Positions 12,785 to 16,444 of a DNA stretch of 43,115 nucleotides are shown here, piece after piece. This DNA is from a virus (Duplodnaviria > Heunggongvirae > Uroviricota > Caudoviricetes), in the IMG/VR virus record IMGVR_UViG_2541047802_000010; one strand, written 5' to 3'. Positions within the stretch are counted from its first letter, which is position 1. Every line of letters starts with the position of its first letter. A program made the position numbers and the translations under genes. The notes beneath the pieces are model-generated. The model ran no database searches. It had not been told where the DNA came from and saw only the letters and a program-made list of their open reading frames with translations.

Positions 12785-13199
12785 ATGCGCCAGGAAACCC
12801 GCTTTAAATTTAATGCCTACCTGTCCCGTGTTGCCGAGCTGAACGGCATCGACGCCGGTGATGTGTCGAAAAAATTCACCGTTGAACCGTCGGTCACCCA
12901 GACCCTGATGAACACCATGCAGGAGTCCTCTGACTTTCTGACCCGCATCAACATTGTGCCGGTCAGCGAAATGAAAGGGGAAAAAATTGGTATTGGTGTC
13001 ACCGGCTCCATCGCCAGCACCACCGACACCGCCGGTGGCACCGAGCGTCAGCCGAAGGACTTCTCGAAGCTGGCGTCCAGTAAGTACGAATGCGACCAGA
13101 TTAACTTCGATTTTTATATCCGCTACAAAACGCTTGACCTGTGGGCGCGTTATCAGGATTTCCAGCTCCGTGTCCGTAACGCCATTATCAAACGCCAGT
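12785..13199 (+). pseudogene. N: Major capsid protein N, 5' fragment (codons 1-138) truncated by IS insertion
   Basis: Translation MRQETRFKFNAY...AIIKRQ then runs into the IS terminal repeat; the remainder of N resumes in frame at 15785. Confidence 0.85.
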
Positions 13200-13284
13200 T
13201 GCGTATTACCGTGAAGGAGATCGGTGAGTAACATCGATGGAGATCGGTTCGTGTCACTTTCACAGAACCGTTTTTAAATTACCT

Positions 13285-14034
13285 TCACTGATCTCCTTCG
13301 GTCAACGGTGATTGTATTTTCCGCATTGATTCTCCTTTAAGTTCGATCTTGATACTGCCATGAACCAGTCGATCTAGGATGGCATCCGCATGTGTGGAGT
13401 CTCCGATCATTTTGTACCAGTTTTCCACCGGCAACTGGCTCACTACGATGATTGAGCCTCGTTGGTACATCAGATCCACTATTTCCAGCAGGTCGCTACG
13501 CTGTTCTGATGAGAGAGGTTCCAGCCCCCAGTCATCCAGAAGCAGCAGATCGCTATTATTCAGCCTGGTCAAAAGTTTGCTGTATCTTCCATCAGCATGC
13601 CCCTGATAGCACTGTTCCATCAGCGCTTTAAGGCGATAATAGTAGACCTTGTATCCCTGTCGGCAGGCATTATGACCAAGTGCACATGCCAGGAACGTTT
13701 TACCGCTGCCGGTGGCCCCGGTCAGTAAAATATTTTGTTTCAGGGTTAACCAGTTTCCCTGACTGAGTGAACGGATGAGGGCCCTGTCCAGCCCTCTATT
13801 GTTACGATAATCCAGCTTTGATAACTCAGCATTAAGTCTGAACCGTGCATGTTTGATCAGACGCTCTGCCTTCCTGTTTTCACGGCAGGTTAGTTCTTCT
13901 GCTGTCAGTAATGACAGGCGTTCTTCGAAGCCCAGCTCCTGGTATGTGCCCGGCTGAGCAAGTTGCTTTTTAAGCGCATCACGGAAGCCGGTGAGTTTAA
14001 GTGCGGTCAGTTGTTCGTAAAGATGATTCATCAT
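13285..14034 (-). CDS. istB: IS21-family helper ATPase IstB (249 aa)
   Basis: Walker A LLTGATGSGKTFLA and DnaA/IstB-like layout; immediately downstream of istA. Confidence 0.85.
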   Translation of the reverse strand: MMNHLYEQLTALKLTGFRDALKKQLAQPGTYQELGFEERLSLLTAEELTCRENRKAERLIKHARFRLNAELSKLDYRNNRGLDRALIRSLSQGNWLTLKQNILLTGATGSGKTFLACALGHNACRQGYKVYYYRLKALMEQCYQGHADGRYSKLLTRLNNSDLLLLDDWGLEPLSSEQRSDLLEIVDLMYQRGSIIVVSQLPVENWYKMIGDSTHADAILDRLVHGSIKIELKGESMRKIQSPLTEGDQ

Positions 14035-14045
14035 TGGATCCCGTA

Positions 14046-15587
14046 TCAGTGGTAATACTCACTGCCGCGTACGTTTTCGTGTTCCATCGTGGATAACAGA
14101 TCTGGTTTTGGATCCTGAACAGGTTGTTTATCCAGACCTTTTTCCAGGAGCGATTTAATACCTGACAGACGCCATACCTTTGTTTTCAGAGCTCTTGCAC
14201 ATGCTGCATTAAGTCTGGCTTTACTGTATTTTTTATGAAGGTTCAGGAGTCCAAGGCAGAAGCGATAGCTTTGTTCCGGATGTGGACGAGAGTTCAGTAT
14301 ATGAAGCACATAACTATGAGTTTCACTGCCTATGTGCCCCGCCCATTCCAGAAGACGCTCTGGCGTCCAGGTGGCATGCTGTCGATGAGCTTCAGGCATG
14401 TGCTCGTTGCGGGTACTGTAGCCATAAGTACGCTTGCGCGGGTGCACAGCAACCTCCTGCCCCTGATTGAAGAGTCTTACCAGTTCTCCGGAGATCCATG
14501 CTTCCAGTTGCTGGCCTAACAGCGAACATGGAACCGAGTAGTAATGTTTGTCGATTTCCACGTGGTAATCGGCATGAACTCTGACTTTCTTCACCAGGGT
14601 GTAACTGTAACTGGCTTCAGGAAGAGGCTTCAGTGCGGGTTTATCAAGCTGGATGAAGAGTTCTGCACGTGAATAACCCAACTTCTGCATTATTTTGTTA
14701 TTCAGTCTTTCCAGCAACTCCCGAATGCGCTGATTAAGCGATGCAAGGCTGTAGAAGATCTCATGCCTGATTCGGGCCATGATCCAGCGTTCAACAACCT
14801 GAACGCCAACTTCAGCTTTGGCTTTATCTTTCGGTTTACGTGGCCGCGCAGGCAAAACTGCGACATTATAATGCTCAAGCATCTGCTGGTAGGTAGGGTT
14901 AACGTCAGGATCATACTTACATGCCCTGGATGTGGCGCTTTTCAGATTGTCCGGAACAACAAGTTCAGGAACGCCACCCAACCACTGGAAGCAGCGAACA
15001 TGACTCATCACCCAGTCTTCAAGCTGCTGAGACCAGGTGGCCTCTGCCCATGTGTAACTTGATGCCCCGAGAACAGCTACGATGACCTGAGCAGTTCTTA
15101 TTTCTCCGGTCTCAGGGTCGGTAACGCCAACGGTAGGTCCACAGTAATCAACGAAAAGTTTTTCGCCAGCTTTATGTACCTGACGCATTGATGGTGAAGT
15201 GGTTTTGAGCCATTCACGGTACATCCGGCAGTAATGGTTATAGCTGTAAAAACCGCCTGGATTACGCTCACAGTATTCTTCCCAGAGTAGCTGCAGCGTC
15301 ACGCATTTATTACGCAGTTCCCGGTGTACTGTAGCCCAGTCAGGCAGAGAGTGCTTCTTCATCTTAACCTGGGTCTGAAGGAACGCATGTTTTAGTTTTG
15401 TATCATCCCATCCTGTAGGTAAGGGCCACTGCTTTATGCCAAGTTGAGCCGCCCGATTAGCATATCTGGATACAACGGAAGGGGAGATTGCAAGACTACG
15501 ACCAATTTGTCGATGGCTGAGTCCAACACCGTATTTAAGCCTAAGAATTTCTTTAAGTTTTCTCATAGAAATTGGAACTGTTGGCAT
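14046..15587 (-). CDS. istA: IS21-family transposase IstA (513 aa)
   Basis: N-terminal HTH (LSHRQIGRSLAISPSVVSRY) plus large DDE-type catalytic region; paired with istB. Confidence 0.85.
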   Translation of the reverse strand: MPTVPISMRKLKEILRLKYGVGLSHRQIGRSLAISPSVVSRYANRAAQLGIKQWPLPTGWDDTKLKHAFLQTQVKMKKHSLPDWATVHRELRNKCVTLQLLWEEYCERNPGGFYSYNHYCRMYREWLKTTSPSMRQVHKAGEKLFVDYCGPTVGVTDPETGEIRTAQVIVAVLGASSYTWAEATWSQQLEDWVMSHVRCFQWLGGVPELVVPDNLKSATSRACKYDPDVNPTYQQMLEHYNVAVLPARPRKPKDKAKAEVGVQVVERWIMARIRHEIFYSLASLNQRIRELLERLNNKIMQKLGYSRAELFIQLDKPALKPLPEASYSYTLVKKVRVHADYHVEIDKHYYSVPCSLLGQQLEAWISGELVRLFNQGQEVAVHPRKRTYGYSTRNEHMPEAHRQHATWTPERLLEWAGHIGSETHSYVLHILNSRPHPEQSYRFCLGLLNLHKKYSKARLNAACARALKTKVWRLSGIKSLLEKGLDKQPVQDPKPDLLSTMEHENVRGSEYYH

Positions 15588-15784
15588 AGGTATCCTTTAC
15601 CGGAATGGCAAAAGATACAGATCAACACACCTGTGAAGTTCCAATAACATTGATGGAGATCACTGAATAACAAAATGAGTCAAAAGTGATCTCCATCGAT
15701 GTTATTCAGCGATCTGTTCAAATGTTATTACCCGATCTCGATGGAAGTTATTGAGTGATCTCCTTTCATGAAAATACGCACCAG

Positions 15785-16444
15785 TCCCTTGATTTAATCA
15801 TGGCCGGTTTTAACGGCGTGAAGCGTGCCGAAACCTCTGACCGCAGCAGCAATCCGATGTTGCAGGATGTGGCGGTCGGCTGGCTGCAGAAATACCGCAA
15901 TGAAGCCCCGGCGCGCGTGATGAGCAAGGTCACTGACGAGGAAGGCCGCACCACCTCTGAGGTTATCCGCGTGGGTAAGGGCGGTGATTATGCCAGCCTT
16001 GATGCACTGGTGATGGATGCGACCAACAACCTGATTGAACCGTGGTATCAGGAAGACCCTGACCTTGTGGTGATTGTGGGGCGTCAGCTACTGGCGGACA
16101 AGTATTTCCCCATCGTCAACAAGGAGCAGGACAACAGCGAGATGCTGGCCGCTGACGTCATCATCAGCCAGAAACGCATCGGCAACCTGCCAGCGGTACG
16201 CGTCCCGTACTTCCCGGCGGATGCGATGCTCATCACGAAGCTGGAAAACCTGTCCATCTACTACATGGATGACAGCCATCGCCGCGTGATTGTGGAAAAC
16301 CCGAAACTCGACCGCGTGGAGAACTACGAGTCAATGAATATTGATTACGTGGTGGAAGACTACGCCGCCGGTTGCCTGGTGGAAAAAATTAAGGTCGGTG
16401 ATTTCTCCACACCGGCCAGGGCGACCGCAGAGCCGGGAGCGTAA
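15785..16444 (+). pseudogene. N: Major capsid protein N, 3' fragment (codons 139-357)
   Basis: SLDLIMAGFNGVK... continues the N reading frame exactly after the duplicated CCAGT; the two fragments sum to 357 aa as in P2 gpN. Confidence 0.85.

Follow-up and report, generated by a model that had tools for sequence, protein, structure and literature searches.

The DNA considered here, record IMGVR_UViG_2541047802_000010 of IMG/VR (43,115 nucleotides; hereafter the window), carries a P2-like prophage whose major capsid gene, N, is split by the insertion sequence (IS) ISEc12. We put the probability at about 96% that a single transposition brought a complete and apparently active ISEc12, an element of the IS21 family, into codon 138/139 of N in an ancestor of the Escherichia coli strains S88, MS7163, N53 and N62, and that the prophage is now non-productive. 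The insertion is real and clean, and the observation holds at every base. It is an ordinary IS hit in a prophage gene, already known and already present in public genome annotation.

The element occupies positions 13200-15780 of the window, and both a reading of the sequence and a direct coordinate check give a complete IS of 2581 bp. It is flanked by a target-site duplication (TSD), with CCAGT at 13195-13199 on the left and the identical CCAGT, verified directly in the sequence, at 15781-15785 on the right. The left junction reads ...AAACG CCAGT followed by TGCGTATTACCG..., and the right junction reads ...TGAAAATACGCA followed by CCAGT CCCTTG.... Six further copies of ISEc12, found at other loci, in other genomes and on plasmids as well as chromosomes, have the same first and last bases, TGCGTATTACCG...TGAAAATACGCA, and gene N of phage P2 has a single CCAGT at the position homologous to the insertion site. 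The boundaries of the element thus have support beyond the CCAGT repeat. An earlier note, made from the letters of the window alone, had described an IS21-family element with imperfect terminal inverted repeats and a 5-bp CCAGT duplication at 13195..15785. Every one of these coordinates was recovered by direct check, the duplication is identical at both flanks and single in P2, and the family assignment and the terminal repeats are borne out by the anatomy of the element described below.

The two pieces of N lie on the plus strand on either side of the element. The 5' fragment (12785-13199) comprises codons 1-138 and one nucleotide more, and matches positions 1-130 of the P2-family capsid profile PF05125 (Phage_cap_P2; Pfam, E 4.8e-50). 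The 3' fragment (15786-16444) runs from the rest of codon 139 to the stop codon and matches positions 127-327 of this 327-position profile (E 1.2e-94). Jointly the fragments span the whole profile, in order and in frame. Joined, they give 1074 nt, that is 357 codons and a stop, with no frameshift. The alignment of the two fragments to an intact P2 N, which the earlier note had proposed as a check, is gapless and colinear over the same length, with 18 nucleotide and 5 amino acid differences (98.3% DNA identity; 352 of 357 residues identical to P2 gpN). Residues 1-357 of the restored protein match residues 1-357 of the 357-residue gpN chain 7jw1_A with an E value of 1e-235. The claim that precise excision would restore a 357-aa N thus stands. 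The accompanying claim that the N frame stops after codon 138 holds for the N-derived part, which consists of 138 codons and one base, but not for the frame itself, which continues 10 codons into the IS and ends at TAA 13229-13231, giving a 148-aa product.

Among 5426 complete E. coli genomes searched, 1514 have a P2-type N that runs uninterrupted across the insertion site; about 6 of the 1520 genomes with a P2-type N have no uninterrupted copy of the 600-nt segment used as query.

The genes of the element lie on the minus strand, antisense to N. istA (14046-15587) encodes a DDE transposase of 513 aa, and istB (13285-14034), which begins 11 nt downstream of istA, encodes an AAA+ helper ATPase of 249 aa; in RefSeq, istB starts at 14031, one codon later. 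The two genes have intact reading frames. IstA scores 310.5 bits against the NCBIfam model for IS21 family transposases, NF033546 (cut-off 160). It contains the rve integrase core (PF00665) and a Mu-transposase C-terminal domain (PF22483), and matches the IS5376 IstA structures 8b4h and 8q4d. In the alignment to IS5376 IstA, D147, D213 and E259 fall in the conserved motifs 'vD', 'DN.K' and 'K.K.E', and we infer that they form the DDE triad. IstB scores 270 bits against NF038214, the model for the helper ATPase IstB of IS21-like elements (cut-off 200), matches PF01695 (E 2.2e-67), and matches the IS5376 IstB structures 8q3w and 5bq5.

The ends of the element are imperfect terminal inverted repeats of about 50 bp, TGCGTATT...AATACGCA, which begin with 5'-TG and end with CA-3'. 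Read inward, the ends match each other at 39 of 51 aligned positions, with a single gap and a score of 26; 2000 shuffles gave a score of -7.5 +/- 3.5 and a maximum of 6. The istB-proximal repeat (13200-13250) contains two direct repeats of the GGAGATC type, at 13216 and 13239, which are 23 bp apart, and an inverted copy lies further inward at 13290. The istA-proximal repeat region (15688-15780) has four repeat units, whose GAGATC-type cores stand in a 23-bp register at 15757, 15734, 15711 (degenerate) and 15688, with an inverted copy of the unit further inward at 15655. Seven of the nine GAGATC hexamers of the IS are within about 130 bp of an end. By analogy with the IS21 family, the repeat units are predicted to be IstA binding sites. 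The ends of IS21-family elements have at least two direct repeats each (L1/L2 and R1/R2) spaced 23 bp apart (PMC10122671), with a catalytic CA dinucleotide at the tips, and transposition requires both IstA and IstB (PMC10122671, PMC11208146). Direct repeats of 5 bp were reported at every insertion sequenced (PMC10122671) and are made by many IS21 members (PMC11208146). The element has all those defining features of the family that can be read from sequence.

The element is named ISEc12 here after RefSeq usage and PMC10711316. Matching copies are labelled in RefSeq as 'IS21-like element ISEc12 family transposase / helper ATPase IstB'. The copy in the window is 0-1 nt different from many ISEc12 copies so named by RefSeq/PGAP, other copies are 0-3 nt different over the 2581 bp, and its length and TSD size are those of the ISEc12 described in PMC10711316. 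By megablast, full-length matches of 2581 bp are present in 1366 of the 5426 genomes, most records being at least 99% identical; the search found 5553 ISEc12 places, a positive genome has a median of 3, and both chromosomes and plasmids are occupied. Near-identity to copies at so many loci suggests recent ISEc12 activity. The duplications at other copies are of 5 bp (GACAG, ACTGC, TCTTC, AGTGA) or of 6 bp (GATGAG, GCAAAG), and one sampled copy, L007, has none. ISEc12 makes both 5-bp and 6-bp duplications.

Further copies of ISEc12 lie in or beside genes of other phages and prophages. MS7163 has one (NZ_CP026853.1 967883-970583), with the TSD GATGAG, in a second P2-like prophage, where it separates the portal gene from that of the terminase ATPase. 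An independent ISEc12 is present in another P2-family N in Ecol_545 (NZ_CP018976.1 1694918-1703317; IS at 1721-4301 of this locus); it lies some 600 nt from the start of that gene, is oriented in the same way and has the 5-bp duplication AGTGA. Four Escherichia phages of 52-54 kb (PhiR12_1, _2, _2_star and _4; records PV340549-PV340553) carry full-length ISEc12 at 99.9% identity, and in two of these records the match adjoins a tail fibre assembly gene.

In reverse complement, the window corresponds to E. coli S88 NC_011742.1 2163105-2206219, with one base different across 43 kb. This sole difference is inside the IS, at 14150, where the window has G and S88 has T, giving L480 and I480, respectively, in IstA. 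The RefSeq annotation of S88 gives the two N pieces as pseudogenes flanking istA/istB, the 5' piece as 'missing C-terminus' and the 3' piece as 'missing N-terminus'. Exactly four complete genomes carry the two junctions with 100% identity: S88, MS7163 (from urine), N53 and N62 (both from cerebrospinal fluid, CSF). Compared with the window, the prophage flanks have 1-2 nucleotide differences in N53 (6.6 kb), N62 and MS7163 (26.4 kb each). N53 and MS7163 differ over these lengths only at 14150; N62 has G at 14150 and differs at 8820 and 10011. The window sequence thus belongs to a member of the S88 group and is identical to none of the four records. N53 has the G of 14150 in another of its ISEc12 copies. 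The 14150 polymorphism may stem from a fifth strain or from gene conversion among copies of the IS. Because identical junctions occur in only these four genomes and the flanking prophage is nearly identical among them, the data point to one ancestral insertion that was inherited vertically. No paper describing an insertion sequence in the P2-like prophage of S88 was found in our literature search.

Two other origins for the same arrangement were weighed, and both appear scarcely credible. Homologous recombination between two ISEc12 copies could have joined parts of different prophages or loci, so that no simple insertion took place. The material for such an event exists, as there are 4-6 ISEc12 places in each S88-group chromosome, with an additional plasmid copy each in S88 and MS7163, and L007, the copy that lacks a target duplication, indicates that rearranged copies occur. 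In a recombinant the two duplicates would normally no longer match, but CCAGT is identical at both flanks; the flanks also join into one gene that is colinear base-for-base with P2 N, and the gene order on either side is the uninterrupted O-N-M-L of P2. Similarly, the assembler might have misplaced a repeat copy, IS elements being a classic source of misassembly and each of these genomes having several near-identical chromosomal copies. A misplaced copy would not yield a perfect 5-bp target duplication, and the two junctions recur with 100% identity in four complete genomes whose assemblies were made independently, by different laboratories and in different years. Taken together, the identical duplicates, the colinear P2 N and the four independent assemblies exclude recombination and misassembly.

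The steps of this transposition are taken from published work on the IS21 family. IstA tetramers would synapse the repeated sites of both ends and the terminal CA-3'OH groups would be exposed. IstB-ATP decamers would assemble on the target DNA, deform it, and recruit IstA, which would then join the IS ends to target phosphates 5 bp apart on the two strands. Repair of this stagger would produce the CCAGT duplication.

The split at residue 138 leaves N as a truncated product of 148 aa and a 3' remnant, neither of which would be expected to form an HK97-type capsid shell. In P2, N is part of a late operon that begins at O and continues via M and L and beyond. Translation of the split gene would end at 13231, ahead of about 2.5 kb of untranslated antisense IS sequence within this operon, and the 2.6-kb insertion is therefore probably polar on the downstream late genes. 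A scan of 12600-16600 for terminators and for outward promoters from which the 3' N remnant might be expressed gave counts not above shuffled expectation and no outward promoter-like site; an in-frame GTG is present at 15755, ahead of the remnant. The statement in the earlier note that the prophage cannot make capsids is a strong and sound deduction for an HK97-type protein cut at residue 138, but it was incomplete, as it missed both the probable downstream polarity and a lesion in the integrase gene.

The prophage extends from 646 to 37072, between yegR and trhP, and is bounded by a 28-bp direct repeat, TAAAAAATAAGCCCGTGTAAGGGAGATT, at 646-673 and 37045-37072; the two copies are presumably the attL and attR of a P2-type integration. 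In the RefSeq feature table the genes follow the P2 order (int, C, cox, A, Q, P, O, N, M, L, lysis genes, tail genes, ogr). The C repressor (99 aa) is intact and 99% identical to Peduovirus C proteins. By its gene order, its C/cox switch and its end repeats, all of which are present, the prophage is identified as P2-like (Peduovirus-type). The integrase gene (753-1762, minus strand) is broken into open reading frames of 231 and 105 aa, and the annotations of S88, N62 and MS7163 mark it as frameshifted. The frameshift is, on this evidence, a second inactivating lesion, and excision of the prophage is probably impossible. Together with the split N, it would make the prophage a locked-in, non-productive remnant that is inherited vertically. 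In N62, a C>T change at the equivalent of window position 10011 places an internal stop in the terminase ATPase gene, which is further decay after the IS insertion. With the integrase frameshift and the N62 terminase stop besides the split N, the prophage is decaying at several points.

Some points weigh against this account of the prophage. Capsid loss, downstream polarity and non-excision are all read from the sequence. The state before the insertion is reconstructed rather than observed, because not one of the 5426 E. coli genomes searched has an uninterrupted copy of exactly this N allele, the best uninterrupted match being 99.2% identical. A P2-like phage that superinfects the cell, or one that already resides in it, could provide gpN in trans or restore N through recombination. 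Place counts point to no second P2-type N within megablast reach in S88 and N62 and to one each in MS7163 and N53, and complementation in trans is conceivable in these last two strains. No evidence contradicts the insertion itself. The production of particles after mitomycin C, proposed in the earlier note as a check, would be a poor test in which a negative outcome is uninformative, because the C repressor of the prophage is of the P2 type and P2 is itself not inducible by the SOS response.

The prophage also contains genes that are candidates for host defence. A 610-aa protein with a DUF7380 domain is encoded at 6720-8552 (plus strand) between replication gene A and the portal gene, a variable cargo position of P2, and matches the PADLOC candidate PDC-S39 (E 8e-85). 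A 359-aa RelA/SpoT-domain protein ('GTP pyrophosphokinase'), encoded antisense at 20739-21818 (minus strand) between tail-completion and baseplate genes, matches PADLOC candidate PDC-S33 (E 1e-16) and may be a toxin of the small-alarmone-synthetase type or a defence gene. A three-gene insert at 28078-30011, between the tail-fibre assembly and sheath genes, has no PADLOC hit; it encodes a DUF5677 protein (280 aa), a tyrosine recombinase-like protein (194 aa) and a 125-aa open reading frame with no family match. Past trhP, at 39066-43115 (plus strand), are genes for PcfJ-domain (404 aa), DUF1266 (238 aa) and DUF4034 (702 aa) proteins, a block that has no convincing match to a defence family and is unrelated to the insertion.

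The insertion might have been kept by selection rather than by drift. In such a domestication the loss of capsid and of late-operon expression would have made the prophage harmless, while the host retained its cargo and immunity to superinfection. The intact candidate defence genes at variable P2 positions, with their matches to PDC-S39 and PDC-S33, and the intact C repressor are what domestication would leave; the lesion persists across four isolates, and the N of Ecol_545 was hit by ISEc12 independently. Four closely related genomes nevertheless represent one event and give no statistical sign of selection, and the integrase frameshift and the terminase stop in N62 resemble ordinary neutral decay. 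Interruptions are also rare rather than recurrent, as roughly 6 of the 1520 genomes that have a P2-type N are without an uninterrupted copy of the 600-nt query segment. Selection is an unlikely explanation for the persistence of the ISEc12 insertion in N.

A bias of ISEc12 toward the late morphogenesis genes of P2-like prophages, or its selective retention there, is more doubtful still. The leads are the insertions in N of Ecol_545 and between the terminase and portal genes of the second P2-like prophage in MS7163, and copies that adjoin portal, sheath, tape-measure, gpD-family and psu genes. The listing of phage genes adjoining ISEc12 is a non-random, biased sample, and counts as a lead only. 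If the bias were real, P2-like prophages would be recurrently disarmed while the host keeps immunity and candidate defence cargo. We give a low probability to ISEc12 hitting P2-like late genes above chance or being under selection there.

A close known parallel is the ISEc12 insertion in the T6SS (type VI secretion system) gene tssM of sequence type 131 (ST131), which has a 5-bp TSD and marks ST131 clade C/H30 (PMC10711316). In both cases the same element splits a structural gene by simple insertion with a 5-bp duplication and is clonally inherited as a lineage marker; the cases differ in target (tssM vs prophage N) and in lineage, and the N insertion is found in four complete genomes only. 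With IS21 and IS5376 (PMC10122671, PMC11208146) the element shares the istA-istB pair, the DDE (rve) core and Mu-like C-terminal domain of IstA, the AAA+ IstB, the TG...CA ends, multiple direct repeats per end at a spacing of 23 bp, and 5-bp duplications. By sequence, IS5376 is only distantly related to ISEc12 (IstA 52 bits, IstB about 100 bits). The ISEc12 IstA is also longer than the solved IS5376 chains (513 vs 373-406 aa), and its istA-proximal end has four repeat units and an inverted copy where the prototype has two units.

The prophage resembles phage P2 (gpN, PDB 7jw1) and P2-like prophages in N sequence, O-N-M-L order, C repressor and the 28-bp att-type flanking repeat. It differs from P2 in its interrupted N, its frameshifted integrase and the cargo genes at its variable positions. 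IS-inactivated defective prophages are well known, for example the IS629-disrupted lambdoid prophages of E. coli O157. As in that example, an IS in a morphogenesis gene leaves a non-productive remnant; the IS family and the phage type are different, and nothing about the present case is mechanistically new.

Scientifically, the insertion adds nothing new: ISEc12, the chemistry of its insertion and the decay of prophages through IS elements are all well described, and the two capsid pseudogenes on either side of ISEc12 are already annotated in RefSeq. Its value is practical. Three of the four isolates that carry it are from neonatal meningitis or CSF, and the two junction sequences are a precise clonal marker of the small S88 group. 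Marking this prophage as non-productive is useful for judging the prophage content, phage release and transduction potential of S88-group strains.

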